A stretch of 64,000 nt of DNA from Minisyncoccia bacterium (GCA_041736805.1 JBGSSW010000016.1:2526-66525), one strand, 5' to 3'. Counted from the first letter of the stretch, positions 40,812-57,252 are shown. Made by a program: numbers and translations. Notes: generated from the letters alone by a model not told the origin.

Positions 40812-41814
40812 TTACAATTCCTGCTCCCCTAATGACGGCTCTAAGTGGATCAGGCACAACAATTACTGGAACTTGTAGGCTTTCTTCCAAAAACGAACTG
40901 AGCCCAGGAATTAAAGCTCCTCCACCAGAAAGATGAATACCTCTTTGCATAATATCAGCCAAAACCTCAGGTGGAGTTCGCTCTAAAACAGATCTAGTTG
41001 ATTCCACTATAATATCCACCTGCCCGGCAATAGCATCATGAATATCTCTGGCGGTGATAATCACCTCTCGGGGTAAACCAGTCATAACGTCCCGACCTCG
41101 AATCACCATTTCACTACCGTTACTTTCTTGTCGAATAGAAGCTAGGGCGATTTTCGCATCCTCTGCCGTTTTGTCACCCACATAAATTTTAAATTGGTCA
41201 CGAATATAAGAAGTAATTGAGTCATTTAGATGGTCTCCTGCTACACGAAGATTTTTAGAAACGACAATTCCACTCAAGGATATAACAGCGATATCAGTAG
41301 TCCCCCCACCGATATCAATCACCATACTGCCAACAGCCTTACCTATTGGTAGTTTTGCTCCAACAGCTGCAGCCATTGGTTCTTCAATTAAGAACACTTC
41401 TCTAGCTCCAGCGTTCTTAGCTGCATCACGAGCAGCTCTCATTTCGACATTTGTAATACCGGAAGGAACACCAACCAAGATTCGTGGGGCAATAAAAGTA
41501 CGTAAGTCGGCGTGAACTTTGTTAATTAAATAACCCAACATTTCTTCAGTTACTTCAAAGTCAGAAATAACACCGTCCACCAAAGGACGGATGACTTCAA
41601 TGTGTTGAGGAGTCCTGCCCTGCATAGTCTTAGCTTCCTGTCCAACAGCAACCAATTGGCCAGTTTTTTTATTAATAGCTACAATTGTAGGTTCATTCAA
41701 TACAATTCCCTTACCTTTCACATAAACTAACGTATTAGCAGTTCCAAGGTCAATAGCGATGTCGGTAGATACCGCCGCAAGCATTTTATTCAAGTATTTT
41801 GATACAAAACTCAT
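40741..41814 (-). CDS. mreB: rod shape-determining protein MreB
   Basis: Actin-fold motifs DLGTANTLVYV, VIDIGGGTTDIAV and LSGGGALIPGL. Confidence 0.9.
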   Translation of the reverse strand: MSFVSKYLNKMLAAVSTDIAIDLGTANTLVYVKGKGIVLNEPTIVAINKKTGQLVAVGQEAKTMQGRTPQHIEVIRPLVDGVISDFEVTEEMLGYLINKVHADLRTFIAPRILVGVPSGITNVEMRAARDAAKNAGAREVFLIEEPMAAAVGAKLPIGKAVGSMVIDIGGGTTDIAVISLSGIVVSKNLRVAGDHLNDSITSYIRDQFKIYVGDKTAEDAKIALASIRQESNGSEMVIRGRDVMTGLPREVIITARDIHDAIAGQVDIIVESTRSVLERTPPEVLADIMQRGIHLSGGGALIPGLSSFLEESLQVPVIVVPDPLRAVIRGAGIVIENLDLYAEILIDKEGELSPRLT

Positions 41815-44280: not shown

Positions 44281-44823
44281 CTATTGTTGAAGTTCTCTTT
44301 CCTTACTCATAAATAAAGACTCCAATTTCAAATTGATTTCTTCGACGCTTTTTTGAATTAAATCTTTTTTTGTAAACTTATCGTCTTCACCCATTCCTCC
44401 AAGTTTAAAGTCCTTTTCTAGTTCTTTCATTTCTTCGTCACGTATAGAACGAACCGAAATACGAGCGTCTTCTAACTTATTTTTTGCTAGTTTTAATAAT
44501 TGCACTCTACGCTCACTAGTTAATTCTGGAAAAATTATTCGCAGTCCAGCAGAATCTCCAGCAACAGATACTCCTAAATCAGCTTCTCGAATAGCTTTTT
44601 CTGTAGCCGATATCTGACCAGAATCCCAAATTGACACTCTTAAAGTTCTGGCATCCTCTATCCCAACAGTACCAATTTGCTGAATTGGTAAAAACGCTCC
44701 GTATGACTCTACTTTAACAGAATCAAGTAAGCTAGGACTTGCTTGACCAGTTCTAATTCCAGCAAATTCTTTTTGTAGCCAAAGCGTTACTTCTTCTAGC
44801 CGTTTCTTTATATCAATACTCAT
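44281..44823 (-). CDS. frr: ribosome recycling factor
   Basis: 180 aa. The pattern ...FAGIRTGQASPSLLDSVKVESYG...LRIIFPELTSERR is classic RRF. Confidence 0.9.
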   Translation of the reverse strand: MSIDIKKRLEEVTLWLQKEFAGIRTGQASPSLLDSVKVESYGAFLPIQQIGTVGIEDARTLRVSIWDSGQISATEKAIREADLGVSVAGDSAGLRIIFPELTSERRVQLLKLAKNKLEDARISVRSIRDEEMKELEKDFKLGGMGEDDKFTKKDLIQKSVEEINLKLESLFMSKERELQQ

Positions 44824-44880: not shown

Positions 44881-45498
44881 TTATCTTAAAGTAAGGGCTA
44901 ATTCTTCCAATAACATCTTATTTGAAGCCCCTCTAGTCTGTAGGTGTTTAGCTAACCAAAATAACTGGACTGAATCTTCTGGACTAGAAATTTTCAACTC
45001 TGCCACCAATTTATTTAATAGTCCAGTCTTAATTTCTTCAACCCAAACTGAATCCCTTTTTAGCATTCGATTTGCTATTTCAGCCATTCTTTCCTTTACA
45101 GACTTAAGATAAAATTCATTAAAAGTAACCAAATTATTCTTTTGACTTTGTGAGTAATCATTCTCTACTTGAAATCTAGAGAGTAAGGTTGGTAGCAAGT
45201 GTAAGGTAAAAGGCAGACAAAAAAGAAACTTTGTGGTTTGTGGTGGTTCTTCTAAAAGCTTTAGCATGGCCTGCTGAGCTTCGATAGAAATATATAAGCT
45301 ACAAACAACGATTAACAATTCCTTTCCTAAAGCTGGACGAACGTAGGCTTTTTTGGTTATTGTTCTAACATCGTCAATGCCAAGATTTTCTATCTCCAAA
45401 TACTCAACTTCACCAATATTCAGTTTGCGCACAAAACCCTTAATTGAGCTAAGCTCAGGATTATCTACACAGTAAAGATAGGCGTGGTGGTTAAGCAT
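44881..45498 (-). CDS. holB: DNA polymerase III delta'-like clamp-loader subunit (truncated, no P-loop)
   Basis: SIEAQQAMLKLLEEPP and LLSRFQ, which are sensor-1 and SRC-like motifs of delta/delta'. The N-terminal ATP-binding region is absent. Confidence 0.5.
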   Translation of the reverse strand: MLNHHAYLYCVDNPELSSIKGFVRKLNIGEVEYLEIENLGIDDVRTITKKAYVRPALGKELLIVVCSLYISIEAQQAMLKLLEEPPQTTKFLFCLPFTLHLLPTLLSRFQVENDYSQSQKNNLVTFNEFYLKSVKERMAEIANRMLKRDSVWVEEIKTGLLNKLVAELKISSPEDSVQLFWLAKHLQTRGASNKMLLEELALTLR

Positions 45499-45505
45499 TG
45501 ATACA

Positions 45506-47140
45506 TTATGCTGGTTTGTGCTTTCTTTGTAAATCCAGAATTTGTTTAATTACTCGTCTCAAGTAATGTTCAAAGGTTTCACCTTGTTCATAGATTATTC
45601 CTTGTTCATAGCGCCAGCCATTCATATAGTCAGTAATACTTTGTTTGATTTCCTGTGTTGAGCCTTCGAATCTTCCAGCTAAAAGAAGTGGTATTTGTAG
45701 GTCTGCAAGTTTTTTAAAGAGTGGATGCTCCCTTCCTTTAGGACCGGTACCAAAAAGGCCGCTTTTCTTAAATAGTGACCAGTCAGATAAAAGTTGATTA
45801 AGTCCATCATCAACCTCACGGGTTTTTAGAGGATCGGCAGAATCACTAGTAGCTAAGGAAGAAGCTAAGGGTAAATCATTTGGAGTTTGCAGTTTTTGGC
45901 CATCATTATTAATGGATGGAGGTTTTGGAACTGGTAAAATAGCTTTTAAAGCTTCTTCTCTAGCTTCTTTTTCAGCAGCTAAAGCAAATCCAGAGACTTC
46001 TTCTTCTGCAGATTTGATCACCTCACTATCGTCTAAAATAACTGGTGACGCTATTGGTGGCGGTAGCTCATTTGAAGTGGCCACATTTTCTTGTTGGCTA
46101 GGCACATCATTAACAAGTTCAGGTTTCGACTGATTTGGAACAGGCTCTGGTCTTGACTGATTCGGAGCAGCTTGATTTTGAGATTGAGACTGCGCGTGCG
46201 TGCTAACTGCGACTTCGACTGACTTGTAAGCAGCTTCCAAACGTTGCATAGCTTCCTCAATTTGACCTGGAGCACCTCCACTAAGTCTCTTCATTGCATC
46301 CAGCAGTGCATTCATATACTCCCGTCCTACTACATTATCGATATCAACTAGATTTACAGGATTACCTACTTTTGTATTTACCGCTAGTTTTATTTCACGA
46401 ATTCGGTCTAGATAATTTTGACCTCCAGCTGACATCTGTGGCTGTGCGGGAGTAGGGTTTTGAGTTGGAGCATCTTGAGCTGGTAGTGGGGCTGGTGCTA
46501 CGTATTGAGGTTGAGGAGGTACTACAGGTTGTGGTGGTACATATTGTGGTTGCGCAGCCACTGGTTGTGGGGCTGGTGATACATATTGTGGTTGCGCTAC
46601 TGCTGGTTGAGGGGCTGGATATGCGTATACTGGAATATTTTGAGTAACAACTGGCGGTACGTACTGAGAAGCAACTGAAGCTGGTTGTGGGGTTGGTGGT
46701 ACTACAGGTTGTGGTGGTACATATTGTGGTTGAGCAGCCACTGGTTGTGGGGTTGGTGCTACGTATTGAGGTTGAGGAGGTACTACAGGTTGTGGTGGTA
46801 CATATTGTGGTTGAGCTACAGCCTGGGGTTGGATTGGTGTTTGATTCGTGACAGCTCCAAAAACCGGCGCCGGTCTAGAAGTACCGAAAGATAAATCTTG
46901 AGCAGACTGAACCACTTGAGAAGTAGATGAAAGTGTAGAAATTAAGTTATGTGCTGCTAACTTCTGCTCTAAGGCGATACGCACAGAAGCATCTCCCCCA
47001 CCATTTTTGTATAAAAAAACCAAATCTCGTAATTCATTCTTGTCAGACGGACTTAAAGAGCTAGAACGAATAGTTGCAAGCAAAGACATCACTCCCGCTT
47101 GGGAGTTAAAATTAAAACCTAAAGAACTTCCTTGATCCAT
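45506..47140 (-). CDS. Pro/Gln-rich tandem-repeat protein (544 aa) with a globular C-terminal domain
   Basis: The central part contains at least eight repeats of PQYV(P/A)PQPVVPP / PQPVAAQ. The N-terminus MDQGSSL and the upstream roughly 60 nt are shared with the 439-aa paralog gene. Confidence 0.5.
   Translation of the reverse strand: MDQGSSLGFNFNSQAGVMSLLATIRSSSLSPSDKNELRDLVFLYKNGGGDASVRIALEQKLAAHNLISTLSSTSQVVQSAQDLSFGTSRPAPVFGAVTNQTPIQPQAVAQPQYVPPQPVVPPQPQYVAPTPQPVAAQPQYVPPQPVVPPTPQPASVASQYVPPVVTQNIPVYAYPAPQPAVAQPQYVSPAPQPVAAQPQYVPPQPVVPPQPQYVAPAPLPAQDAPTQNPTPAQPQMSAGGQNYLDRIREIKLAVNTKVGNPVNLVDIDNVVGREYMNALLDAMKRLSGGAPGQIEEAMQRLEAAYKSVEVAVSTHAQSQSQNQAAPNQSRPEPVPNQSKPELVNDVPSQQENVATSNELPPPIASPVILDDSEVIKSAEEEVSGFALAAEKEAREEALKAILPVPKPPSINNDGQKLQTPNDLPLASSLATSDSADPLKTREVDDGLNQLLSDWSLFKKSGLFGTGPKGREHPLFKKLADLQIPLLLAGRFEGSTQEIKQSITDYMNGWRYEQGIIYEQGETFEHYLRRVIKQILDLQRKHKPA
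46440..46860. repeat. tandem DNA repeats (units of about 60 to 180 nt) encoding the PQYVPPQPVVPP repeats
   Basis: The 35-mer ggtactacaggttgtggtggtacatattgtggttg occurs three times on the plus strand. Shorter variants are interleaved. Confidence 0.6.
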
Positions 47141-47149
47141 AACCTAATT

Positions 47150-47188
47150 ATCATAACACCATGCATACTATAAAGCAGCTACTTTATT
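47150..47188 (-). promoter_or_regulatory. promoter/5' module (extended -10 TGTTATGAT 9 nt upstream of the ATG, plus the conserved upstream box ATAAAGTAGCTGC), duplicated at 48571-48609
   Basis: Minus-strand reading ATAAAGTAGCTGC-n13-gTGTTATGATaattaggtt-ATGGATCAAGG. A near-identical block precedes the 439-aa paralog. Confidence 0.4.
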
Positions 47189-47242
47189 TGAATGACCTGT
47201 GTATTATTTTAAATTTATTTTCTTACTTAACTAAGTGAGATT

Positions 47243-48562
47243 TTATTTATCTTTAAATTTATTTAGCCGTACAGCTTCTGATTCAGCCACATAGCGTGAA
47301 AACAAATCAATAAGTGTAGTTGTGCCTTCTTGAGGTAAGTGTTCTTTCATAGTAGTCATTTCATCGATAAGATCTAACCACGCTAGGTAGGTATCGTACT
47401 TAATATTTTCAGTTTTCATAATTTCTCTAACCCGTGCATTAGGTAAATTTTGAAATTTCTGTATCTCGGAAAGACTCATATCCTTTAATAAATTGAAGGG
47501 GCTGTTATAAATTCCTTTATTAAATAAATCATAAGTTGAATTATCAAGATTTTCTATAGCTCTATTGAGAATTTTTGCAAATGCCTTCTCATTACCGAAT
47601 ACTTTACTAACAAATAACTTGTAGTCTGGCTGGTCAAAATAATTACCGTCTGGTTTAAAGAATCTAGGCGGGGTGATAGGCTCAACCTCTTTTTTAAACA
47701 CGCTCTTAATTCCAATCTTAGGACCACTATCAGTAACAATAGAAGAATTTTTCTGAGTTTTTATAATAGCTGTCTCCAATTTTTTAATTAAAGGTTTGAC
47801 TTCTTCTTCTTTACTGGAAGTAAATTTAATCGGAATATCTTTGACAGCCTCGTTTTCTTCCACCCTCAAAGAGGCTGACTTTTTAAAACTATCAGAAACT
47901 ATTTCAACCCCCAAAATTTTACCTAACTCAAGACTGACGGCACTTAAATTTATCTCTTCGCCGGGATATATTAAATCAATATCGTCACCACTGCGTAAAT
48001 TTAAAGTAGCTCTTAATTCAGAAGTACCCTCAATTGTGTCAAAAAGCCTATCTAGTACTTCCATTCTTTTACCGGCTGGAAGATCTTTTATATCTTCATT
48101 AAATTGTTTTTCAATAATGTTCCAAAAAGTATCCTCCTTCTTAACTACATAAATGATTTCCTTCTTCTCGCTGGAGGGGTTTTTAGTAGTAGATATTGAT
48201 TCACGAGGTTTTAAATCCAAATCATCAATAATGAGACGGGTAAATTTTGCTGACTGCCACCAACTATATCCGCCATATTTAATTTGCAACTTATTAAATA
48301 TTTCATCTTCGAGTAAGTTTTTAGACATATTATAATGAACAGATAATAGTTCATCTGCCAAAAACTTAATGGATTGTCCCAGTTCAATCTTTATTTCAGA
48401 GTCAAGAGAACTACATGCAGAAGACCCAATTAACTCAAGGCCAGAAAGAATAGTTTCATACTTAATATCACTTTGATTAACACCGTAGTAATCAATTGAA
48501 ATTTTTTCAAATTTTAAAGACAAGTCTTCTAAGCTTTTGTCTAAACTACTTCTTTGATCCAT
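47243..48562 (-). CDS. hypothetical protein (439 aa): soluble paralog of the C-terminal module of the adjacent 1472-aa protein
   Basis: Shared blocks: KYGGYSWWQSAKF vs KFGTESWWQAAKI; LysM-like YVVKKEDTFWNI...DLIYPGEEINL vs VESGDSVSSIF...HLIRPGENIDV; and a roughly 130-aa C-terminal block (PDYKLFVSKVFG...TYDLF...NIKYDTYLAWLDLIDEM...LPQEGTTTLIDLFSRYVAE vs PEYQKFITKLFG...TYALF...RINYETLIAWFNKIDQM...LPNTPQTTLQDIYSRSVAE). No signal peptide or TM segment. Confidence 0.55.
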   Translation of the reverse strand: MDQRSSLDKSLEDLSLKFEKISIDYYGVNQSDIKYETILSGLELIGSSACSSLDSEIKIELGQSIKFLADELLSVHYNMSKNLLEDEIFNKLQIKYGGYSWWQSAKFTRLIIDDLDLKPRESISTTKNPSSEKKEIIYVVKKEDTFWNIIEKQFNEDIKDLPAGKRMEVLDRLFDTIEGTSELRATLNLRSGDDIDLIYPGEEINLSAVSLELGKILGVEIVSDSFKKSASLRVEENEAVKDIPIKFTSSKEEEVKPLIKKLETAIIKTQKNSSIVTDSGPKIGIKSVFKKEVEPITPPRFFKPDGNYFDQPDYKLFVSKVFGNEKAFAKILNRAIENLDNSTYDLFNKGIYNSPFNLLKDMSLSEIQKFQNLPNARVREIMKTENIKYDTYLAWLDLIDEMTTMKEHLPQEGTTTLIDLFSRYVAESEAVRLNKFKDK

Positions 48563-48570
48563 AATTTATA

Positions 48571-48609
48571 ATCATAACACTACCTTTATTTTACCGCAGC
48601 CACTTTATA
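48571..48609 (-). promoter_or_regulatory. second copy of the promoter/5' module (ATAAAGTGGCTGC-n14-gTGTTATGATtataaatt-ATGGATCAAAG)
   Basis: Direct comparison with 47133-47200. Arms of 11 of 11, 10 of 10 and about 13 of 14 nt are identical. Both genes start MDQxSSL. Confidence 0.4.
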
Positions 48610-48641
48610 GACCAATTTGAGGGATTAAATCGCAACACCTT

Positions 48642-48911
48642 CTACGCGGCAACTTCCTTTAATTCCGATCGCAAAATTGTTATCTCTTGTTTCAACAACT
48701 CCTCAAACCTAGGATAACTGGAACAGAGTGACTCTAAAAAATTATCCTCTGCCACGTGAGCATCAATGTAAGATTCAAATTGGTTTGATTGCTCTTCGTC
48801 TTCTTCGGCTAGATACTGCATCAAGGCACTTTGAAATACTAGAGTACCCAATTCCTCAGCAAAGACATTTTCGTCTTTACTATCAATTTGATTTACTTGT
48901 TGTGTTGTCAT
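48642..48911 (-). CDS. small acidic protein (89 aa) coupled to the giant protein gene
   Basis: Its start lies 2 nt after the stop of the 1472-aa ORF. It is highly acidic (E/D-rich) with predicted helices. No family recognised. Confidence 0.4.
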   Translation of the reverse strand: MTTQQVNQIDSKDENVFAEELGTLVFQSALMQYLAEEDEEQSNQFESYIDAHVAEDNFLESLCSSYPRFEELLKQEITILRSELKEVAA

Positions 48912-48913
48912 AA

Positions 48914-51900
48914 TTAAGCCTTAATTGAACGTACATTTGCTTGCTTCAGCTTCATAAAATCCTCTGCTACTGATCTGGAGTAAATATCTTGTAGTGTGGT
49001 TTGTGGAGTATTTGGTAATTTACCTTTCATTTGGTCAATTTTATTAAACCAAGCAATAAGTGTCTCATAATTAATTCTATTTTTATCAGCAAATTCATGC
49101 AGATATTCGTTCGATTGCTCTCTAAGCAGTTTAAGATTATCCAAATTTAATTCCTTCAGAGATTCGTACGGACTTTCATATGATTTAAATCTATCAAAGA
49201 GGGCGTATGTTTTTGCTTCAAAACTAGACGCATTTCTACCTACAGCATAGTCAAAGTTTTTTGGACTACCAAATAGTTTAGTAATAAATTTTTGATACTC
49301 AGGTGACTTTAGGAAGTTGTCTCCGACTACAAAAGGTCTCGGTGCTTCAGTTGGTAAAGAGGGTTTGTAATTAAGGGTCTCGCCCAAAGCTGGTTTAAAT
49401 CCATATGAGTTTTCGTCCATAACTCTAACTGGGGTTTTGACAGTTCCATCCAAAATGCCTTCGGCTTTAGCGGCATCTAATTCTGTTTCAGTTGGGGGCT
49501 TCCACGGTGTCTCTTGAGCAATTTTGATTTGCTTTTCGAAAAGCGTCTCTGGGTTACCAGCACCTTGTCGATGTAATATTTCAGCCGTTGGTGTAGCTAT
49601 GCCCGATTGGCCAATTTTTAAATCAGGGTCAACAAACTTGCCTAACAATTTTGCTACGTCAATATTTTCACCTGGTCTTATTAAATGAGGATTGCCGCTA
49701 CTAATGCCAAGCTTCTTCCAATCTTCAGGGCTAAGAGTCCAAGTTGGATTTTGAGCATTTGTCAGTTCTGGAAACTTTTGCAACATTAATTTTGACAGCC
49801 CTTCTCGTGTCACTCCTTCTGGCTGCTTAAGATTACCTTGATCAAATTGGATCTGGAGATTCTTTTTAAAGATGCTAGAAACACTATCGCCAGACTCTAC
49901 TTTATGCTCAGGTATTTTTATCTCTACTGCTTCCTTATGAACAACATCATTAATTTTGTCGTTAACCGGACCCATCTGATTCTTCATCACATCCTCGTTT
50001 GGCATAACGTCCCCAGTTGGCTTTACTACTGAATCACCAACCCCGACCACTTCAATTGAACCAATTTTTACATTATTTATCTTAGCTGCTTGCCACCATG
50101 ATTCTGTACCAAATTTGGCCTCCAATTTGTCCATCAAAAGTCTTTCCACTTGGGCATTCGGCATATGAGGATGAGCTGACAAAATATCTTTCACTGTCAA
50201 ATCAGCTAATTTCTGTACTTCCAACATTTGTCCTGAAGATAGTTCAAGACTACCGGTTTGCAAACCTTGCAGCTCAATTCCTGAAACAACTGTTTTGGTA
50301 AAGGTACCACTCGGGTCATCGTTCAATACTGAGACTGATTCAGAAAGTGAAAAAGGAGCTTTTGCGTCAGTCACACTATCAAAGTGTGGGTCATTACCCG
50401 CTTTCATTACATCATCATTGTAGACTGGTTCAGGGTGTTCGACTGTTGCCACAGCATTCTCAGCCGCATCTTCATTTATATTGTCATTAACTGGGTCGCC
50501 AGATTTCATCACGTCGTCATTGTAGACCGGCTCAGGATTTGCCATAGTTGCCTTTGCATTCTCAGCCGCTGATCCAGCAGACGCTGGTGACATTGCTACC
50601 TTTGGAACCGCCTCACCACCCCCAGAATTACCACCATTAGCTCCTCCGCCCACACCAGACGGTGAAAGAATATCGTACGCTGCCATCGCACCACGAGAAC
50701 CCCCTGCAGCTAAGATAGTTACCCCAATAGTCATTGCAGTTTTACGTTTTTTTGCAGTATCAACTTGCGCATTTGCCAACATAACTGCTCTTCTGGCTTC
50801 AGCAACCGACATTGTATTTGAGTTTTCAGAATTTGTTAGTAAAATTTGAAGCCTTTCGCCTGCACTTTTTACTCTTTTTCCTTCATATTTATTGACGGCC
50901 GCTCCTGCCCCCATACCAAGGGCAGTTGAGACACCCCACCTTCCAGCCCCTGCCGCTCCACCAAGTGCCGCTGAAGCAGCCACGACTCCTGCTCCGGCTG
51001 CCCCTACTGCCAAAACTCCCAGGGTTGCACCTGTCATAGAAGCTACCGCTAGACCAATCGCTAATCGTACTTTTTTATTTTTCGGCAGAAGTTTTGCAAT
51101 CCTTCCTACCGTCGCTATAGTCTTGGGCCAATCATTAATAAAGGCATCCCTTTTTTCAGCTTTAGAAGCAAGGATAGTTTTTTGTTCAGCAGCATCAATA
51201 CCTACAATTAGTTTGTTCTGTAAACCTGTCTTAATCTGGTCACTATCAGCTGTCAATACAGTATCTAAGACACGATCTTTTCTTCTATCTTCTATCTGAA
51301 TAAGTAATTTCTCACGGTATTGTTCGGCCGCTTCATCAGCCTCCTTTCTTAATTTACGTAAATGTTCTGCCGGACTCGATTCTCCGTTGAATGAATTCTT
51401 AATCCCCCCCGTTATCTTTTCTTTTATACTTTGTTTATGATAGCTAGACAAAGCCTGACGATATGCCTCGTCACACTTATCCATACTGAGACGAGCTAAC
51501 ATTGTCTCATTAGCCAAACTTTTTCTTTCAGCTTTTCTTTCATCTATAAAACCTACTCTTTCGTGAGTCGGTGAATCAGGATTGATTCCTACTGCTCGCA
51601 ACCTCTCTGCCCTAGCAGCATCCTCAGGACTAACTATCGAACCAGGTGCTGCTGCTACAGGAGGCAAATCATCTGGTGTAGGTTCTGGAGCTGGTGCGGT
51701 ATCGGGACTCTGTGTATCGCTTACAACATCAGGGGCAACCGGAGCAGCTTCACCATCAGTTGCTGGAGGAGGCACGTCTAAATCAGGACTCATCATATCA
51801 GCAGAAGTCTTTTCTTCTAGAATTTCTTCAACCGCTGGTTTACCATAATAATTACCTGAATTATTATTTAAAATATCAGATTCTAATACTTCAACCCCAG

Positions 51901-53332
51901 CGGTCGATTCAGCCTCAATTTCTGGGACTGTTTCTGGAACATAATTTTCCAAACTTTCCTCATCATATAATTCTTCCACTTCCCGGCTGATACTCTTCTC
52001 TTTCAACTTTAAACTTAGCTTTCCTAGACTTATTTTAAGAGCTTTTAGATAGCGCGATTTAATTTTTAAAGCAATGTTCTTATCGGACTCTTTGACACTT
52101 TCAATTTTGTTCACCAAATCTACTATTTCGTTAACTAACGATTCATTCACTTCTTTTATACGCGATGAATCAAAAAGTGTCTGGGTTTCTTTGGCTAACC
52201 TTTCCATTTGAGCGTCCATTTCTTCTAAATCTTTTGGTTCGTTTTCACTATCAAAAGAACCCTCTGTTTTAGGACCTCTTACTTGTCTTTCCTGCTCTTC
52301 TTTTTCCAGTAGTTTTACTAACTCACCAGGATTTTCTAAATAAAACGCTACTCCGTTTTTTATTTCATTATAATTACTATCTATTGCTCGACTAATTTCA
52401 ATTTTTTCTTCTACACTCTTTCCGGTTCCGACTTTTTTCCTGACTAAATCACCAGTGTTTCTTCTAATTCTTTCTAAAATTTTACTTACTGATTGCGGCA
52501 ACCTATCTATTCCAGCCACTTCTAAAAGACCGTGCTGGGCTTTTTCCATAATAAACCGTATCGGAATATTTTTTCCATTTCCATCTTTCAATTCTTTGCC
52601 ATTTCTATATCTCTCGGCCAACTTTGGATTACCACTCAAAACTTCTCTGGTCCCAAAAACTTCTTCGGCCGTTGGGAAATCACCAGCTTCAAGTTTATTA
52701 AAATTTGTTTCCTCATTTGATTCAAAAACTAATGAGTTTGAAACCTCTTCCCCTGGTACCAAAGCCTCACTTTCAATTGAATCAGTATCCACACTAAAGG
52801 GACCAGAATAATACTCCTCTGAATTATCAAATGATTTAGTTTCTTCCTTTGTGGCTTCCGGGTCAAAATCTTCCACACCCATCTTGGTTAAGTATTTATT
52901 CCAAGCCATTTCATGCTCATCCCGAGGCCCGACAGAAAACTCATGGGGGTTTTTGTTTGTTATTTTTTCATTAAAATTAGCGATACCCTGACGAAACTTA
53001 AAAAAAGCCTGCTCTACTTGATACCTTTTTTTATGATCATCTGTGGTTGTAGTTTCATTTATTAGCTCAATCAATTCTTTGTAGGCAATACTAACCGTAC
53101 TTACTAACTCACTTAAATTACCCACCTCAACCGAATTAATTGCTTGATTTTTAAAATCCTCGTATTCTTCGACAGCGTCTGTAAGTCGTTCAGAAAAAAA
53201 AGTGTCTTCTGAATCGTCTTCTTCATAATTATCTTCTAAGCCCTGTTGCCCAGCCTTTACCAGAGCAGCCCGAGTTAGTCTTTCGACTCTTTCTCTTTCA
53301 AAATTATGAATCTCACTCTCAGATTTTCCCAT
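48914..53332 (-). CDS. giant bitopic protein (1472 aa): N-terminal acidic/coiled-coil region, Gly/Ala-rich TM hairpin, then repeats, LysM-like motifs and a conserved C-terminal module
   Basis: Its start lies 8 nt after the stop of the VirB4-like gene. Residues 1-740 are charged and helical. A Pro-rich linker (PAPEPTPDDLPP) follows. Hydrophobic glycine-zipper segments AIGLAVASMTGATLGVLAVGAAGAGVVAASAALGGAAGAG and MTIGVTILAAGG follow. A Gly/Asn-rich stretch and two repeats of about 36 aa (PEPVYNDDVMK) come next. The C-terminal roughly 430 aa are paralogous to the 439-aa protein. Confidence 0.6.
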   Translation of the reverse strand: MGKSESEIHNFERERVERLTRAALVKAGQQGLEDNYEEDDSEDTFFSERLTDAVEEYEDFKNQAINSVEVGNLSELVSTVSIAYKELIELINETTTTDDHKKRYQVEQAFFKFRQGIANFNEKITNKNPHEFSVGPRDEHEMAWNKYLTKMGVEDFDPEATKEETKSFDNSEEYYSGPFSVDTDSIESEALVPGEEVSNSLVFESNEETNFNKLEAGDFPTAEEVFGTREVLSGNPKLAERYRNGKELKDGNGKNIPIRFIMEKAQHGLLEVAGIDRLPQSVSKILERIRRNTGDLVRKKVGTGKSVEEKIEISRAIDSNYNEIKNGVAFYLENPGELVKLLEKEEQERQVRGPKTEGSFDSENEPKDLEEMDAQMERLAKETQTLFDSSRIKEVNESLVNEIVDLVNKIESVKESDKNIALKIKSRYLKALKISLGKLSLKLKEKSISREVEELYDEESLENYVPETVPEIEAESTAGVEVLESDILNNNSGNYYGKPAVEEILEEKTSADMMSPDLDVPPPATDGEAAPVAPDVVSDTQSPDTAPAPEPTPDDLPPVAAAPGSIVSPEDAARAERLRAVGINPDSPTHERVGFIDERKAERKSLANETMLARLSMDKCDEAYRQALSSYHKQSIKEKITGGIKNSFNGESSPAEHLRKLRKEADEAAEQYREKLLIQIEDRRKDRVLDTVLTADSDQIKTGLQNKLIVGIDAAEQKTILASKAEKRDAFINDWPKTIATVGRIAKLLPKNKKVRLAIGLAVASMTGATLGVLAVGAAGAGVVAASAALGGAAGAGRWGVSTALGMGAGAAVNKYEGKRVKSAGERLQILLTNSENSNTMSVAEARRAVMLANAQVDTAKKRKTAMTIGVTILAAGGSRGAMAAYDILSPSGVGGGANGGNSGGGEAVPKVAMSPASAGSAAENAKATMANPEPVYNDDVMKSGDPVNDNINEDAAENAVATVEHPEPVYNDDVMKAGNDPHFDSVTDAKAPFSLSESVSVLNDDPSGTFTKTVVSGIELQGLQTGSLELSSGQMLEVQKLADLTVKDILSAHPHMPNAQVERLLMDKLEAKFGTESWWQAAKINNVKIGSIEVVGVGDSVVKPTGDVMPNEDVMKNQMGPVNDKINDVVHKEAVEIKIPEHKVESGDSVSSIFKKNLQIQFDQGNLKQPEGVTREGLSKLMLQKFPELTNAQNPTWTLSPEDWKKLGISSGNPHLIRPGENIDVAKLLGKFVDPDLKIGQSGIATPTAEILHRQGAGNPETLFEKQIKIAQETPWKPPTETELDAAKAEGILDGTVKTPVRVMDENSYGFKPALGETLNYKPSLPTEAPRPFVVGDNFLKSPEYQKFITKLFGSPKNFDYAVGRNASSFEAKTYALFDRFKSYESPYESLKELNLDNLKLLREQSNEYLHEFADKNRINYETLIAWFNKIDQMKGKLPNTPQTTLQDIYSRSVAEDFMKLKQANVRSIKA

Positions 53333-53340
53333 ATTTATTA

Positions 53341-56106
53341 TTACATCATACCCCCTATTGCACTTGTAGCAACTGGCTTTTTGGCATAACGGGCAGATAT
53401 TTCTGCTTCTACCTCGGCTCGCGGTCGACCGTGTTTGGCAGCACTCATAGCAATCAGTTCTGCTACCCTATTTGGATCAGACTGAATTGGTGGTCGCATC
53501 GCCACACTAAAGGGTTTGGTTGGTATGCCATTGGCCAAGATACGCACTAGAGCATTGTAATTTGGGACATTCATTAAATCTCTCGCCTCAAACACCGGGG
53601 CGAATTGCTGCTCTAAAAACTGAGCGTCTTCTGAACCAACTCGGAAAGAAACCAAAGAACCGACATTACCGAAAACAGCATCCTTGATACTTTGATCTAA
53701 CTGAGCAATAAACTGATGTACGACAGTCAGACTCAGCTTGTATTTACGAGCTTCAGAAAGAATTGAAGCAATCGCTGGAGTAGAAACGTTTTGAAACTCA
53801 TCAATATGTAAAAAGAATGGTGGGAAACTTTTTGAAGCATCATCAACTCTTGAAAGTGCTGCCATTAATATCTTGCCGACAAAAATCATTCCGATCAGAT
53901 TAGCATTGATTTCACCCAGTCGACCTTTAGAAAGATTTACCAACAAGATTTTTTTCTCGTCCATCACCTGGCGGAAATTAAAAGCGGATTTTTGCTGACC
54001 AATAATCGGTCGCATGTAGTCGTTGGCTGTAAAGACGTCAAACTTAGATACGATGTAAGGGACAATATTTTCTAGGGAGGCTTCCCCGCCAGCCTTGGTA
54101 GCAATTTCTGTCCAAAACTGAACCACCACTGGATTCTTGGCTTTTGATAATTTATATCTTCGGTACTGTGCGTCCACCATTACACGGGAAATGTCCATCA
54201 AAGTATTGCCACTTTCTGGATCTTCCATCACTAGCATCGTGGCGTTGCGGAAGTATTGTTCAAACATCGGACCCATACTTTCAGGATTAGCACCATAAAG
54301 TTTCTGGAAAATTGAAAATAGTTCATTGACCACAAAGGTCTTTTGTTCTGGTTTGGTGATATCATACTCCAGCATATTAAGGCCTACCGCACTCTCCATT
54401 CTTGCTGGGTCAAAATAAATAACATCCTGCTCTCTTTCCTTTGGCATGGCTCCCAATACTTCTTCAATATCAGTGCCGTGAGGATCAATCATACAAACAC
54501 CATTGCCAGATTGAATATCCTGAATAATCGTATTGGTCATAAACTTAGACTTTCCTGTACCAGTTTGCCCAATAACATATAGATGTCGCATCCGATCAAG
54601 CTCGGTCATATAAATTGGCCTTTCTACACCACGATGTCGGTTGTCGCCAATCAGAGTCCCTTGGGTTGGTATATCATTTGGCGCTGGAGCGGTATTAGAT
54701 TGTGATTGCTTAAATTGAGGTGAGCTCAAAATACCATTACTAGGGAAATGAATCATTGTCGCCAGCTCAGTTAATGACAGGGGCAAGGCCGCTTTAGCTG
54801 AGAACTCACGAAATGAAAAAGCCTTCTGCAAATGTAATAAAGAACTACCAGTAGCTTTTTTAAAAGCAAAAGAATTACCTTCAACTAAATCAAACTGATT
54901 AAAAGTTGATTGAATTTCGGTCATTATTTGCTCAGCTCGAGCTGGATCTGCCGCTGAAACAGCCAAACGTATATTTGTTTCAATAATTTCAGTTTGGATT
55001 TTCTTATTAAAAATATCCACCTTATCTATATCAGGTGAAGTAACAACTTCTGGTTGATCGGTTTTGGTCTTTGAATTAAATAAATCAGAAATCGCTCCTA
55101 TGATTCCCCCACTTACACTGCTGCGTGAAATGGCGTCAGACGCTTTCTTACCCTTTTGAATATTTTTAATAATTTCCTGATAAGATTTCCGATACTTTTT
55201 TTGTGGATACCGCATCACAAATTGTACAGCTGCACCACCGCCTTCTCTCTCAATTTTTGAAAATGCATTCAATATCACAGCTAAAGGATCGGAAGAAAAA
55301 CCGTCAGGTGTCCGTAGCGGGTAAATAGGATGTTTTTTGATTTGTGCTTCTGAAATAATAGTCTTTCCTTTGTCGACAAAGATATTATAGTCGTGTGCTT
55401 GAATAATTAACTCAGCGTGAGGGAAAAGCGAGAGGGTTTGTTTTTCAAACAAATTTACAAACTTGTTCGGTACGGCTACATAAAAAACAATATCATCACT
55501 ATTGTCAGCCACTGCTATTTCAATCACAAAATGATTTTCAGACTGCTGTGAGCCTATTGTACGTAGTCCAGCAAAAAGTTGCTCCATCATGCTCACAATC
55601 TCTGCCAACTGGTATTCACGGCCATCTTTAGATTTTACCTCTGGTAAGGTCACTTCATAGAGTGTCATGCTCAACATCTGCCAAGGTGGAACGTTTTCCT
55701 TTAAGTCTTGGATTTTTGAACCGGAACGGATTTGTTCAATTAATTGCCGGTGAACTTCGTCGACTATATAGGCGTTGTCCATTTTTTCTAGTACCGACAA
55801 GGCATTGCGAATCCCTTTCTCCTTGGCTAATTCTAAAATATCGGTCACTGGATCGTGTGAAATGGCGACTTGTTCAATTGAAGCAGCTAAAGCTGGTTCA
55901 TCCAGCAAGTGTTCACGATCAAGAATAATTCTCGGTGTAAAAGAAGCGTATTCTTTTATTTCTTGATTGCCGATTGTTTCAGTATCAGAATTATCACTTT
56001 CAGGGTTACGTTGCAAAAGCTCTCGCTCTCGCTCAGCAATACGTTCACGTAAGTACAACAACTCCTCCTCTGGAGAGGAAAACTGTTTTGGTATCCCTTC
56101 TGGCAT
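53341..56106 (-). CDS. VirB4/TraC/TrbE-family (DUF87/HerA-like) type IV secretion-type ATPase
   Basis: 921 aa. The C-terminal ATPase carries Walker A VIGQTGTGKSKF, Walker B FFLHIDEFQN and a downstream VVHQF...L motif, with domain spacing typical of VirB4/TraC. The N-terminal roughly 480 aa are not assignable. Confidence 0.7.
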   Translation of the reverse strand: MPEGIPKQFSSPEEELLYLRERIAERERELLQRNPESDNSDTETIGNQEIKEYASFTPRIILDREHLLDEPALAASIEQVAISHDPVTDILELAKEKGIRNALSVLEKMDNAYIVDEVHRQLIEQIRSGSKIQDLKENVPPWQMLSMTLYEVTLPEVKSKDGREYQLAEIVSMMEQLFAGLRTIGSQQSENHFVIEIAVADNSDDIVFYVAVPNKFVNLFEKQTLSLFPHAELIIQAHDYNIFVDKGKTIISEAQIKKHPIYPLRTPDGFSSDPLAVILNAFSKIEREGGGAAVQFVMRYPQKKYRKSYQEIIKNIQKGKKASDAISRSSVSGGIIGAISDLFNSKTKTDQPEVVTSPDIDKVDIFNKKIQTEIIETNIRLAVSAADPARAEQIMTEIQSTFNQFDLVEGNSFAFKKATGSSLLHLQKAFSFREFSAKAALPLSLTELATMIHFPSNGILSSPQFKQSQSNTAPAPNDIPTQGTLIGDNRHRGVERPIYMTELDRMRHLYVIGQTGTGKSKFMTNTIIQDIQSGNGVCMIDPHGTDIEEVLGAMPKEREQDVIYFDPARMESAVGLNMLEYDITKPEQKTFVVNELFSIFQKLYGANPESMGPMFEQYFRNATMLVMEDPESGNTLMDISRVMVDAQYRRYKLSKAKNPVVVQFWTEIATKAGGEASLENIVPYIVSKFDVFTANDYMRPIIGQQKSAFNFRQVMDEKKILLVNLSKGRLGEINANLIGMIFVGKILMAALSRVDDASKSFPPFFLHIDEFQNVSTPAIASILSEARKYKLSLTVVHQFIAQLDQSIKDAVFGNVGSLVSFRVGSEDAQFLEQQFAPVFEARDLMNVPNYNALVRILANGIPTKPFSVAMRPPIQSDPNRVAELIAMSAAKHGRPRAEVEAEISARYAKKPVATSAIGGMM

Positions 56107-56125: not shown

Positions 56126-56162
56126 TACAAGAAATGAATTTGCGAGCAATCCACCTAAATAA

Positions 56163-56192
56163 AAACCGTCAGGCTACGCCTGACGGTTTTTA
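56163..56192. terminator. rho-independent terminator (ccgtcaggc-tac-gcctgacgg) between the mreB paralog and the VirB4-like gene
   Basis: A perfect 9-bp stem is flanked by AAAAA upstream and TTTTTTATTT downstream. It works on either strand. Confidence 0.6.
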
Positions 56193-56205
56193 TTTAGATA
56201 TCTTG

Positions 56206-57252
56206 TTAGCGCTTGGCCAAAACGGTCTTCTTGTAAGCATCTAAGTGTTCTAGAGCAATACCCGTGCCAGTAGCGACACAAAAAAGAGCTTGGTCTGCCA
56301 GATGAGCCTTCACTCCCGAACGTCGTTTGACTAGCTCAGGAAAGTTTCTTAGTTGTGAAGTCCCGCCAGTCATAATTACTCCCCCATCAATAATATCTGC
56401 TGCGAGTTCAGGTGGGGTCTCTTGAAATACATCTTTAATCGCTTTTATCATTTCACGCAAGTCTCGACTTATTGCTCGCACTACTTCATTTGTTCTTATC
56501 TCAGTTGTTCTAGGTAAACCAGAGAGTACATCTCGCCCTTTAATGTCCATTACTAGTTCTTCTTCCAAAGGTAAGGCTGAACCAATTTTAATTTTAATTT
56601 CTTCGGCTGTCTTTTCACCAATGGAAAGATTTCTAGTTTTTTTAACATAATCAATTATCGAAGCATCGATTCGATTTCCCGCACACTTCACTGAGTTTGA
56701 AGCTACAATTCCTCCTAGAGAAATCACGGCTACGTCGATTGTTCCGCCGCCAATATCGACAATCATGTGTCCTTGTGGTTCATAAATCGGCACCCCGGCT
56801 CCAATCGCCGCCAAAATCGGCTCCTTAACCACATAAGCATTTCTAGCTCCAGCTTTAAGAGTTGCCTCAACCACCGCTCGTCGTTCAGTTGAAGTCACTC
56901 CAGCTGGTACGGATATCATTACATCAGGTTTAAATAAGTTGAACCGACTCATGGATTTACGAATAAAATATCGCAACATAACTTCGGTGACTCGGTAATC
57001 TGCAATTACTCCGTCTTTCATCGGTCGATAGGCCTTGATACTGTCTGGAGTACGTCCTATCATTCGCTTTGCTTCTATTCCGACAGCTAAGACTTCATTA
57101 TCATCAGAGATAGCCACTACAGAGGGTTCGTTTAAAACAATTCCTTGTCCCGGTATAAATACCAAAATACTAGTTGTACCTAAATCAATACCAATCTTCG
57201 GGTTTAAATTATTCCAAAACATCATATTATTTATCTTGCCAACATAGTACAA
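56206..57252 (-). CDS. second MreB/Mbl-like actin homologue
   Basis: KIGIDLGTTSILVF, MIVDIGGGTIDVAV and MTGGTSQLRNF match MreB phosphate-1/phosphate-2/adenosine motifs. The ORF-track start at 57252 is TTG; a Met at 57225 or 57222 is the more likely start. Confidence 0.8.
   Translation of the reverse strand: MYYVGKINNMMFWNNLNPKIGIDLGTTSILVFIPGQGIVLNEPSVVAISDDNEVLAVGIEAKRMIGRTPDSIKAYRPMKDGVIADYRVTEVMLRYFIRKSMSRFNLFKPDVMISVPAGVTSTERRAVVEATLKAGARNAYVVKEPILAAIGAGVPIYEPQGHMIVDIGGGTIDVAVISLGGIVASNSVKCAGNRIDASIIDYVKKTRNLSIGEKTAEEIKIKIGSALPLEEELVMDIKGRDVLSGLPRTTEIRTNEVVRAISRDLREMIKAIKDVFQETPPELAADIIDGGVIMTGGTSQLRNFPELVKRRSGVKAHLADQALFCVATGTGIALEHLDAYKKTVLAKR

Follow-up and report, generated by a model that had tools for sequence, protein, structure and literature searches.

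A class-wide gene module of Paceibacteria headed by a soluble coupling-type ATPase next to a second mreB: a possible housekeeping DNA translocase

The stretch of DNA analysed here, referred to as the window, comprises 64 kb of a genome from the Paceibacteria (candidate phyla radiation, CPR) and carries five tightly packed genes on its minus strand. These encode, in this order, a P-loop ATPase of the VirB4/VirD4/HerA/FtsK superfamily (53341-56106, 921 aa), a giant "middle" protein (48914-53332, 1472 aa), an acidic, helical protein of 89 aa with a pI of 4.05 that is a divergent relative of DUF5663 (48642-48911), a soluble 439-aa copy of the C-terminal module of the giant (47243-48562), and the Pro/Gln-rich protein of the PQ544 family (45506-47140, 544 aa). 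Both the ORF coordinates and the intergenic gaps (8, 2, 79, and 102 nt from the ATPase gene to the PQ544 gene) reproduce the original prediction exactly, and its picture of a tight gene set headed by such an ATPase, with uncharacterised partners, was confirmed. The 8- and 2-nt junctions suggest translational coupling.

Upstream of the ATPase gene lies mreB2 (56206-57252, minus strand), which encodes a second MreB paralog (Pfam MreB_Mbl, 428 bits). Divergent from it, outside the operon and within the conserved neighbourhood, is an HTH_3-MurA fusion gene (57308-58807, plus strand), with the HTH directly joined to the MurA core in 56 related loci. On the other side, a short holB-like gene (DNA polymerase III delta'; 44881-45498, minus strand) starts 7 nt past the PQ544 stop and is followed by frr (ribosome recycling factor; 44281-44823, minus strand), which ends the conserved block, and then by genes for an M50 protease, proS, mreB1 (40741-41814), mreC, PBP2, and the start of a dcw-like cluster. 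The wider neighbourhood is made up of cell-wall and division genes, in keeping with the housekeeping surroundings described before. Scanning the ORFs around the cluster revealed no relaxase, integrase, or VirB6/8, and relatives of the ATPase, fixed on the chromosome, occur in at least 569 species-level genomes, which bears out the earlier view that this is not a conjugative element.

The ATPase is composed of a helical N-extension specific to Paceibacteria (residues 1-170), an alpha/beta domain belonging to Pfam DUF8128 (~171-470), and a coupling-protein/HerA-like P-loop motor belonging to DUF87 (~471-905), with no TM segment detected in the protein. The two Walker motifs already named in the original prediction are present and invariant across 57 homologues: located from the translation, Walker A (GQTGTGKS) occupies residues 513-520 (54547-54570, minus strand) and Walker B (FFLHIDEF) residues 764-771 (53794-53817, minus strand). 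Walker B is followed by EARKYKLSLTVVHQFIAQLD, which may be similar to the GRK...Q...QL motif of coupling proteins such as TrwB. A helical insertion lies between both Walker motifs in a low-confidence part of the structural model.

In HMM searches, the best sequence-model matches of the ATPase are coupling proteins (VirD4/TraD/TrwB). T4SS-DNA_transf scores 30.6 bits against a cut-off of 20.1, and TraG-D_C, SXT_TraD (8.7e-16), and CD1115 (1e-12) also match, the NCBIfam coupling-protein scores being far under the family cut-offs (57 vs 366 bits). Aligned with hhalign, F-plasmid TraD covers residues 505-805, from Walker A to past Walker B, and this match is weak (E = 0.0035); FtsK_SpoIIIE stays under its cut-off (16.3 vs 24 bits). 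The ATPase had been called VirB4-like, an identity rejected here, since the VirB4 models CagE_TrbE_VirB and TIGR00929 gave no match at E <= 0.1, hhalign comparisons returned nothing for F-plasmid TraC and the Walker A region alone for phage G gp155, and VirB3/6/8 neighbours are missing. Outside CPR, the sole full-length relatives found are Bacillus phage proteins of PHROG 5156, among them phage G gp156 and SPO1 gp27.4, and one Bacillus plasmid protein. The phrog_5156 match spans N-domain and motor (E = 1.4e-81), phage G gp156 aligns with residues 171-908 (hhalign, probability 99.9%, E = 1e-32), and the DUF87 protein of the Bacillus subtilis plasmid, whose gene adjoins TcpC/D/E-type genes, is homologous over its full length (E = 1e-23). 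The ATPase, a soluble two-domain protein, falls by homology into one family with the TM-less "coupling ATPases" encoded in the DNA-translocation operons of Bacillus phages and plasmids.

Conservation of the gene order was followed in 80 related loci, using subsets defined by completeness or by the flanking DNA available. The collinear order in these genomes is mreB2, ATPase, a variable stretch, PQ544 family, holB, and frr. The block including holB is collinear in 47/47 complete loci, in 64 of the 68 loci with enough upstream DNA mreB2 immediately precedes the ATPase gene on the same strand, and PQ544 is found downstream of the ATPase in 49 of the 51 loci where 7 kb or more of sequence follows, over ATPase identities of 52-85%, all of these being counts inflated by the compact, co-directional genomes of CPR. 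Median identity is 66% for the ATPase (over 914 aa), 62% for frr, 36% for holB, and 83% for mreB2, so that the ATPase evolves as slowly as frr. The cluster is a chromosomally fixed feature, with PQ544 as the constant downstream partner gene of the ATPase. What does not hold is the idea of five genes conserved as one unit: whereas the ATPase, PQ544, mreB2, and holB-frr are near-constant, the fast-evolving middle gene encodes a TM-less protein in many lineages and is missing from others, and the 439-aa paralog was seen in 0/80 loci. Neither a tail-domain gene (see below) nor a DUF5663 gene is present in 12/51 loci, in some of which PQ544 comes straight after the ATPase gene.

No Pfam, NCBIfam, or PDB sequence match was found for the giant. 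Related loci do not preserve it in this form, and its membrane spans, and with them its bitopic nature, are predicted. The first 740 residues are acidic (pI 4.7) and poorly conserved, and residues 740-900, rich in Gly/Ala, are basic (pI 11), hydrophobic parts lying at ~755-797 and ~866-880. Residues 755-890 (50663-51070, minus strand) consist of a 42-aa uncharged stretch, a strongly basic loop, and a shorter hydrophobic stretch; the third hydrophobic stretch of the protein comprises just ~15 uncharged residues. The C-terminal region (pI 5.1) contains an expanded LysM-like motif (residues ~1138-1225; 49658-49921, minus strand) and a conserved tail domain of ~140 aa. Among orthologues, lengths vary from 200 to 1850 aa and hydrophobic segments may be present or absent, two such regions ~90 aa apart recurring in the long ones, and the tail domain is carried by 27/42 middle proteins, TM-bearing as well as TM-less and signal-less. 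Of the two LysM-like motifs proposed for the giant, one weak motif per module stands, with the family consensus YxVxxGDTLWxIxE ... LIxPGExINL, and the second is unsupported. Pfam LysM is matched by 5/24 module-family members (best E = 2.3e-5), the window proteins not being among them, and the family profile matches the LysM repeats of LytE and Ecp6 in the PDB.

Orthologues of the small acidic protein occur at 33 loci. In most of the 25 such loci counted by eye, the protein comes after a long middle protein (at least ~780 aa), as a rule one that bears hydrophobic segments. Pfam DUF5663 is reached by 3/24 of them (best E = 1.2e-8), the 89-aa protein of the window giving no match at E <= 0.01. 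As for the 439-aa protein, its residues 37-427 align with residues 1014-1457 of the giant (BLASTP, E = 3e-29, 26% identity), confirming it as a paralog of the C-terminal module, and none of its hydrophobicity windows reaches the level of a TM segment or signal peptide, as had been stated. Its three database homologues include two fragments of larger proteins, and the closest relative locus has just the middle gene, a small gene, and PQ544, in this order. At its 5' end (48530-48625, minus strand), the 439-aa gene resembles the corresponding region of the PQ544 gene (47108-47205), the two having in common GTGTTATGAT, an ATG ~10 nt further downstream, and first codons reading MDQxSSL, the N-terminus typical of the PQ544 family. 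This gene would then be a chimeric duplication with a copied PQ544 promoter and start.

According to the original prediction, these proteins would form a self-contained envelope-spanning secretion or anchoring apparatus, where the ATPase energises the bitopic giant, the LysM region binds peptidoglycan outside, and the 439-aa paralog acts as a secreted substrate or regulator. The 8 nt between ATPase and giant genes and the LysM-like motif would suit such a machine, and the positive-inside rule applied to the basic Gly/Ala-rich region would fit an N-in, hairpin, loop-in, TM, C-out topology. However, the third hydrophobic stretch is short, the C-terminal module may be cytoplasmic because the same module and tail occur in proteins without TM or signal, and no channel-forming component was identified in the cluster. 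Furthermore, the ATPase is still highly conserved in the many lineages with a short TM-less middle form or none, and the paralog is absent from the related loci. Since these five genes do not form a single conserved set, the envelope-spanning or secretion role is left unsupported, and we regard this apparatus as improbable.

Alternatively, the ATPase might supply the coupling protein (T4CP) that is missing from the chromosomal, monoderm-type T4SS of Patescibacteria, a system with its genes elsewhere, near dnaA. It would recruit substrates to that channel, and its neighbours would serve as adaptors and cargo: the small, acidic DUF5663 protein would chaperone TM-bearing cargo, and the tail-domain proteins would be substrates read via their conserved C-terminal domain. 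IcmS/IcmW and VirE1 provide the comparison for such a chaperone. The preference for coupling-protein HMMs, the tail domain shared by proteins with and without TM segments, the position of DUF5663 beside long middle proteins, and the effector-like pace of the middle gene are all consistent with this possibility. A recent survey counts 5,713 VirD4-like homologues in 2,918/3,035 genomes of Patescibacteria, just 148 of the homologues being near virB4 and 97% away from it. Its authors raise exaptation as a possibility and note that T4CP genes frequently lie at a distance from virB4 (Quinonero-Coronel et al. 2025, PMC12102498). The window ATPase gene is very probably among those counted. Yet, VirB4 is reported in 2,417 of these 3,035 genomes, which would leave many genomes with a coupling protein but no channel, a point weakened by MAG incompleteness, and in Southlakia epibionticum, a member of a different class whose t4cp homologue is not necessarily an orthologue, this gene is non-essential and the T4SS genes are essential (PMC12102498). 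Conservation at the level of frr and fixed mreB2/holB/frr synteny would also be unusual in a secretion accessory, a relaxase is absent, and secretion of the neighbours has no support here, which makes this role rather doubtful.

The PQ544 protein has three small helical domains (residues 14-63, 241-323, and 441-540) separated by disordered Pro-rich linkers, as judged from the alignment and the AF2 model, which has no PDB fold match at E < 0.1. None of its 691 homologues has a Pfam domain or an informative name; its C-domain turns up in 543 representative clusters, at the C-terminus in all of the 150 best hits listed. The persistence of PQ544 behind the ATPase at all the identities sampled weighs against there being no dedicated machine at all, but a lone HerA-/FtsK-like ATPase in DNA repair, dimer resolution, or replication restart, with unrelated, lineage-specific neighbours (e.g., a surface or wall protein, a scaffold) held in place by the frozen gene order of small CPR genomes. 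A downstream holB would fit this, as would the variability of the middle gene, the long co-directional housekeeping array, and the promoter-like elements belonging to the PQ544 and 439-aa genes themselves. Nevertheless, the two shortest junctions, the lack of NurA or another HerA partner among the ORFs scanned, an N-domain of the alpha/beta DUF8128 type with no HAS-barrel seen, and an actin-like neighbour recurring in phage relatives render a lone enzyme unlikely.

Regarding this neighbour, MreB2 is a bona fide MreB paralog, 40% identical to the mreB1 product (BLASTP). The spacer between mreB2 and the ATPase gene holds a terminator-like palindrome (56155-56197, minus strand) with a perfect 20-bp stem and a subsequent T-run, and a strong hairpin is also found there in about half of the related loci. 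Therefore, mreB2 is probably transcribed as its own unit, and it is synteny that links MreB2 to the ATPase. MreB2 has no BLAST similarity to the phage actin-like proteins, which belong to different actin families, so this parallel could be a coincidence.

The reading we tentatively favour, with a likelihood somewhat below even, is that of an MreB2-linked housekeeping translocase with lineage-specific adaptors, probably moving DNA. The module would represent a class-wide, chromosomally fixed housekeeping set of Paceibacteria, with a soluble ring-type translocase (DUF8128 N-domain plus VirD4/HerA-like motor) as its core. As a hexamer, the ATPase would move DNA, either within the cytoplasm or on the inner side of the membrane, serving chromosome segregation or handling rather than conjugation, and would work with a filament of MreB2, while the three Pro-linked domains of PQ544 would make it an adaptor or scaffold. 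In some lineages, including that of the window, the fast-evolving middle protein and the small DUF5663 subunit may tether the ATPase to the membrane and possibly to the wall; the core does not need a membrane partner, given the 12/51 loci devoid of both a tail-domain and a DUF5663 gene. A point against this proposal is that the nearby genes encode no DNA-binding element, relaxase, or recombinase.

Among known systems, the type IV coupling proteins (VirD4/TrwB/TraD/TraG/DotL) resemble the window ATPase in their sequence models and, in a low-confidence part of the structure, in the insertion between the Walker motifs, comparable to the all-alpha domain of TrwB. They differ from it in that a ~470-aa soluble N-region replaces the N-terminal TM anchor, and relaxase or T4SS genes are not adjacent. 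Contrary to VirB4/TraC/TcpF, the ATPase lacks VirB4 HMM matches and VirB3/6/8 neighbours, and contrary to HerA and FtsK-SpoIIIE, it has no identified TM/linker/gamma architecture, HAS-barrel, or NurA partner. As judged by term searches, the Patescibacteria survey gives counts only, MreB and DUF87 each occur in it 0 times, and no description was found of the mreB2/PQ544/DUF5663/holB-frr context, the DUF8128 N-domain, or the phage relatives (PMC12102498). Another close counterpart is the phage "DNA translocation operon" described bioinformatically in Bacillus phage 0305phi8-36 (orf200-207), SPO1 (gp27.3/27.4/27.9), and phage G (gp146/153/155/156). This operon encodes an MreB-like protein and a coupling ATPase devoid of TM segments; its function is predicted only, and its deletion had no laboratory phenotype (PMC3357382). 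Full-length homology, through N-domain and motor, links the window ATPase to SPO1 gp27.4 and phage G gp156, all of them without a TM domain, and an actin-fold protein is nearby in both settings, MreB2 in the window and the ALP-type gp27.9 in SPO1. In SPO1, gp27.4 is encoded between the actin-like "partition protein" (ALP_N/MreB-like_C) and a Replic_Relax nickase, and the phage G gene adjoins VirB6-like and VirB4-like genes. The window ATPase has no relaxase-like nickase, VirB6-like, or VirB4-like neighbour, and PQ544, DUF5663, and the tail-domain protein are missing from the phage loci as annotated. The window actin is a true MreB, related to gp27.9 through the fold alone, and the ATPase has an extra conserved N-extension of ~170 aa. 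Finally, in contrast to the dispensable island of the phages, the ATPase gene of the window is a vertically inherited core gene.

The five genes follow one another on the minus strand at the positions and spacings originally predicted (8, 2, 79 and 102 nt): an ATPase (53341-56106, 921 aa), a giant middle protein (48914-53332, 1472 aa), a small acidic protein (48642-48911, 89 aa), a 439-aa paralog of the C-terminal module of the giant (47243-48562), and a Pro/Gln-rich 544-aa protein, here called PQ544 (45506-47140). The predicted housekeeping surroundings and the second mreB upstream (mreB2, 56206-57252, minus strand) hold as well. Only 7 nt separate PQ544 from a holB-like gene (44881-45498, 205 aa). 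The alignments of its product to delta' models begin at about profile position 80, so that the N-terminal P-loop part appears to be missing. This gene is followed by frr, an M50 protease gene, proS, mreB1 (40741-41814), mreC and the genes for PBP2 and GreA, and further on by those for an aminoacyl-tRNA synthetase, RsmH, an FtsI-like PBP and a Mur ligase.

This arrangement is widespread within one class. At least 569 loci encode a relative of the ATPase in a scan with one genome per GTDB species, and all homologues of 68-85% identity come from Paceibacteria/Parcubacteria metagenome-assembled genomes. In a synteny sample of 80 fetched loci, mreB2 lies immediately upstream of the ATPase gene, on the same strand, in 64 of the 68 with enough upstream DNA, and a PQ544-family gene lies downstream in 49 of the 51 with at least 7 kb on that side. 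The order is collinear in every locus holding mreB2, ATPase, PQ544, holB and frr (47/47). Median identities are 83% for MreB2, 66% for the ATPase (over 914 aa), 62% for Frr and 36% for HolB, which places the ATPase among the most conserved large proteins of Paceibacteria, on par with the ribosome recycling factor. A mobile-element reading of the window locus was rejected, since GC content is unremarkable across the region and the 47 complete relatives are collinear.

The variable part is the interval between the ATPase and PQ544 genes. Among the 51 loci, 12 show the arrangement of the window, with a small acidic protein and a middle protein carrying the conserved C-terminal tail domain; 13 have a tail-domain protein without the small gene; 12 have the small protein together with a middle protein of no recognisable tail; and 12 have neither, PQ544 directly following the ATPase in some of them. 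In the other two, the small protein is present and PQ544 absent. An ATPase acting alone in repair or replication, with unrelated neighbours, would be at ease with so changeable an interval, yet PQ544 follows the ATPase almost constantly; this less well supported explanation seems to us unlikely.

Some of the related loci deserve separate mention. In the most divergent relative (L079, 9980-15474, 52% identity), the ATPase gene comes after secY and map, a position resembling the end of a ribosomal-protein operon as far as these two scanned genes tell, and it is followed by genes for a 782-aa protein and a DUF5663 protein, mreB2 and PQ544 being absent. A 5.4-kb contig labelled Candidatus Azotimanducaceae (L072, JBLHGD010000061.1) carries an ATPase-PQ544-holB-frr block of Paceibacteria type at 62-65% identity, and is probably mis-binned. 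Finally, two contigs of a single metagenome-assembled genome (L039 and L045, GFS_12610) each contain an mreB2-ATPase-DUF5663-PQ544 block with 62-63% identity to the window, which suggests either a mixed bin or a true duplication.

The spacer between mreB2 and the ATPase gene contains a terminator-like hairpin (56155-56197), formed by a perfect 20-bp palindrome and a T-run, and a comparably strong hairpin is found there in about half of the related loci. Therefore, mreB2 is probably a separate transcription unit, and its link to the ATPase is one of conserved position. On the other side of mreB2, a divergent gene (57308-58807, plus strand) encodes a MurA of the EPSP_synthase family fused to an N-terminal Xre-type HTH_3 domain, and in 56 related loci (L004, 7320-8816, among them) the HTH joins the MurA core without interruption. 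Since RodZ binds MreB through an HTH of the same kind, this fusion might, by analogy, tether MurA to MreB2. After murA comes a gene for a 631-aa protein with no Pfam match (58871-60766, plus strand), with 40-77% identity in 58 related loci.

The Walker motifs of the ATPase were correctly read in the original prediction (Walker A GQTGTGKS, residues 513-520; Walker B FFLHIDEF, residues 764-771), and both are invariant among 57 homologues. The assignment to VirB4, however, does not stand: neither Pfam CagE_TrbE_VirB nor NCBIfam TIGR00929 VirB4_CagE matches at E <= 0.1, profile comparison (hhalign) of the family with the VirB4-type TraC of the F plasmid finds nothing (probability 4%), and the alignment with the VirB4-like gp155 of phage G is confined to Walker A. 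The models that do reach their Pfam cut-offs are T4SS-DNA_transf (30.6 bits, cut-off 20.1), TraG-D_C (22.1, cut-off 22) and DUF87, and the FtsK_SpoIIIE motor model remains below its own. NCBIfam TraD, CD1115 VirD4-like, TrbC and CedD match far below the family cut-offs, those to TraD and CD1115 being significant, and the F-plasmid coupling protein TraD aligns weakly by hhalign, over 248 columns that span the motor. A sequence search of the PDB returns only TrwB and DotL, around Walker A, and the PADLOC matches (mad8, HerA) cover the P-loop region only. The AF2 model (pLDDT 72) shows a helical N-terminal extension, a confident alpha/beta domain (~140-450), annotated on a close homologue as Pfam DUF8128 (PF26449), and a motor of RecA-like fold that contains a helical insertion. 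The match to PHROGs family 5156 extends over residues 170-905 (E = 1.4e-81). By these sequence criteria, the protein belongs to the DUF8128-DUF87 / phrog_5156 family of "coupling ATPases" without a transmembrane (TM) segment and is a putative translocase of coupling type or HerA type.

The main rival to a housekeeping role starts from this same kinship: the ATPase would be the coupling protein of a CPR type IV secretion system (T4SS) encoded elsewhere, and its neighbours would be adaptors or cargo. An N-terminal TM anchor was not found, no hydrophobic window of residues 1-190 reaching 1.2, and, according to PMC3357382, relatives lacking a TM segment are frequent in this branch. No relaxase or T4SS match appears in the cluster or its scanned flanks, as expected from the prediction that this is not a conjugative element; more specifically, the four neighbours of the ATPase have no Pfam or NCBIfam match to VirB3-, VirB6- or VirB8-type proteins, and the flanks, scanned for part of the window ORFs, are housekeeping. 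According to the survey by Quinonero-Coronel et al. in 2025 (PMC12102498), 2,918 of 3,035 Patescibacteria genomes contain VirD4-like homologues, 5,713 in total, only 148 of them near virB4, VirB4 itself being present in 2,417 genomes; exaptation of these homologues is kept there as a possibility. We regard a coupling function for a distant T4SS as possible but doubtful.

Of the 691 homologues of PQ544, the most constant partner downstream, not one carries a Pfam domain or an informative name. The protein is built from three small helical domains separated by Pro-rich disordered linkers and has a conserved FGxxRPxPxF peptide; a PDB fold search with its model yields generic helical bundles only (best E = 0.13). 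Its C-terminal domain forms a closed family of 543 clusters, and an exhaustive search for fusions to known domains found it at the C-terminus in all 150 best matches. A docking domain shared with the tail of the middle proteins was considered and rejected, the best middle-protein match to the PQ544 C-domain HMM having E = 0.21. The first Pro-rich linker contains a repeated QPQYVPPQPVVPP, encoded by a 42-nt tandem repeat at 46532-46618 (2.1 copies, 86% matches).

The giant consists of an acidic N-terminal region (pI 4.7), a basic Gly/Ala-rich hydrophobic region (~755-890) and a C-terminal module, and a search against PDB sequences gave nothing meaningful. The paralogy of this module with the 439-aa protein was borne out by BLASTP (E = 3e-29, 26% identity, giant residues 1014-1457 against 37-427), and so was the soluble character of the latter, hydrophobic segments being absent from the 439-aa, 89-aa and 544-aa proteins. 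Concerning the two LysM-like motifs formerly read in the giant, the motif is plausible only once per module. The family of this module has the consensus YxVxxGDTLWxIxE … LIxPGExINL, apparently interrupted by an inserted stretch of ~25 aa. Pfam LysM does not match the window proteins; 5 of 24 family members match (best E = 2.3e-5), and in the three orthologues with positions shown the match is limited to profile positions 1-16 of the ~43-aa domain. Because of these members, and because the family profile matches the LysM repeats of LytE and Ecp6 in the PDB at the YxVxxGDTLW motif (E = 1.8e-4), it is plausible that the module holds a LysM-like motif in divergent, expanded form. With regard to topology, a cytoplasmic N-terminus, a hairpin, a TM segment and an external C-terminus fit the basic loop by the positive-inside rule; however, the same module is found in proteins without TM or signal, and the last hydrophobic stretch is short.

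The small acidic protein has no match to Pfam PF18908 (DUF5663) at E <= 0.01 in its window copy. Three of its 24 positional orthologues do match (best E = 1.2e-8), and a search with an HMM made from these orthologues retrieves the L079 DUF5663 protein (E = 6e-8), so that, on profile evidence, it is probably a divergent DUF5663 member. It is mostly found beside long middle proteins, usually those with hydrophobic segments; the middle proteins without this neighbour are mostly short and devoid of such segments. No related locus has a gene in the position of the 439-aa gene, the closest relative (L001) having the order middle gene, small gene, PQ544. The 5' regions of the 439-aa gene (48530-48625) and the PQ544 gene (47108-47205) are alike, with GTGTTATGAT, an ATG about 10 nt downstream and then MDQxSSL; this suggests a duplicated promoter and start, with short or absent leaders, and we infer that the 439-aa gene is probably a lineage-specific chimeric duplication. 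A defence-system or phage origin of the four partner proteins was rejected: none matches PADLOC or PHROGs, and a core gene in collinear order is unlikely to serve defence.

The original prediction joined all these proteins into a self-contained envelope-spanning or secretion apparatus. Its non-conjugative part stands and its VirB4 part has fallen; a secretion machine could still draw on the hydrophobic region and the LysM-like motif of the giant, in an interval that changes from locus to locus, and we find it improbable. What fits best is a vertically inherited housekeeping module, whose core would be a TM-less coupling ATPase, putatively a soluble ring translocase, together with a PQ544 scaffold. 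Such a module would work beside MreB2, membrane or wall tethers being optional, lineage-specific additions.

Full-length relatives of the ATPase outside the CPR are found by tblastn in Bacillus phages (gp156 of phage G, gp27.4 of SPO1 and their relatives) and on a plasmid of Bacillus subtilis, where the gene for a 913-aa DUF87 protein precedes conjugation genes of TcpC/D/E type. By hhalign, both gp156 (probability 99.9%, E = 1e-32, residues 171-908) and the plasmid protein (99.6%, E = 1e-23) align across the N-domain and the motor, and the translation of the latter, read by eye, has no obvious TM segment in residues 1-190. In SPO1, gp27.4 stands between the actin-like gp27.9 (ALP_N, MreB-like_C), which precedes it, and the Replic_Relax nickase gp27.3, which follows it. 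The neighbours of gp156 in phage G are a VirB4-like ATPase and a protein of TrbL/VirB6 type, and the nickase is encoded nearby. A specific relationship between MreB2 and gp27.9 was rejected, there being no BLAST similarity. The longest non-CPR tblastn matches come from two very large, oddly annotated "plasmids", one with a single annotated feature: Priestia megaterium pFDU301A (1.08 Mb) and an 898-kb replicon of Pontibacillus sp. ALD_SL1. Each covers 70-77% of the query in three pieces over 3.4-3.9 kb, and an interrupted gene or an unusual replicon may lie behind each of them.

DNA would be the likeliest substrate of the ATPase, and MreB2-linked chromosome handling its likeliest role, a tentative choice that we hold at somewhat less than an even chance. 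It was made because the nearby branches (T4CP, HerA and FtsK), to our knowledge every characterised one, move DNA; because the relatives on mobile elements have nickases and partition proteins of actin-like type as neighbours; and because the conservation of the ATPase is of housekeeping grade. Paceibacteria rank with the most abundant bacteria and also with the least understood ones, and co-culture with a host has succeeded for only a few. An MreB-linked DNA pump would matter for the ways in which CPR cells segregate their DNA or exchange it, and, if the ATPase were instead the coupling protein of a CPR T4SS, its neighbours would be the first candidates for adaptors or effectors that act on the host; in both cases, the locus supplies concrete targets in the few cultivated Paceibacteria. 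It also brings together orphan VirD4-like genes, counted but unexplained in the 2025 survey, a second MreB, three families without characterised relatives (PQ544, DUF5663 and the tail-domain proteins), and a forgotten prediction from Bacillus phages.

That prediction was made by Pathria et al. in 2012 (PMC3357382), who described the same set in phage 0305phi8-36 as a "DNA translocation operon", comprising a relaxase, a TM-less coupling ATPase homologous to gp27.4, a VirB6-like protein and an MreB-like protein; deletion of this operon had no laboratory phenotype. The Paceibacteria locus resembles it in having an actin-fold protein, here MreB2, beside the ATPase. It differs from it in that MreB2 belongs to another actin family than gp27.9 of SPO1, and in that no Replic_Relax/MobC-like relaxase was matched among the cluster proteins or the scanned neighbours. 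As a speculation that we consider possible rather than probable, a mobile-element module of actin-like protein and TM-less coupling ATPase, domesticated in Paceibacteria or ancestrally shared with them, would have become an essential class-wide machine: a ring translocase guided by MreB2 on a PQ544 scaffold, by which these ultrasmall epibionts would segregate their chromosome or move DNA in a directed way, and tethered to the wall in some lineages by a fast-evolving LysM-like membrane protein. If so, it would be a bacterial chromosome-handling system of a previously undescribed kind. A literature search on PF26449, DUF5663, CPR FtsK and Minisyncoccus T4SS found no description of the cluster, DUF8128 or DUF5663. 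The putative translocase is known in kind, and its class-wide conserved context is, as far as this search goes, previously undescribed.
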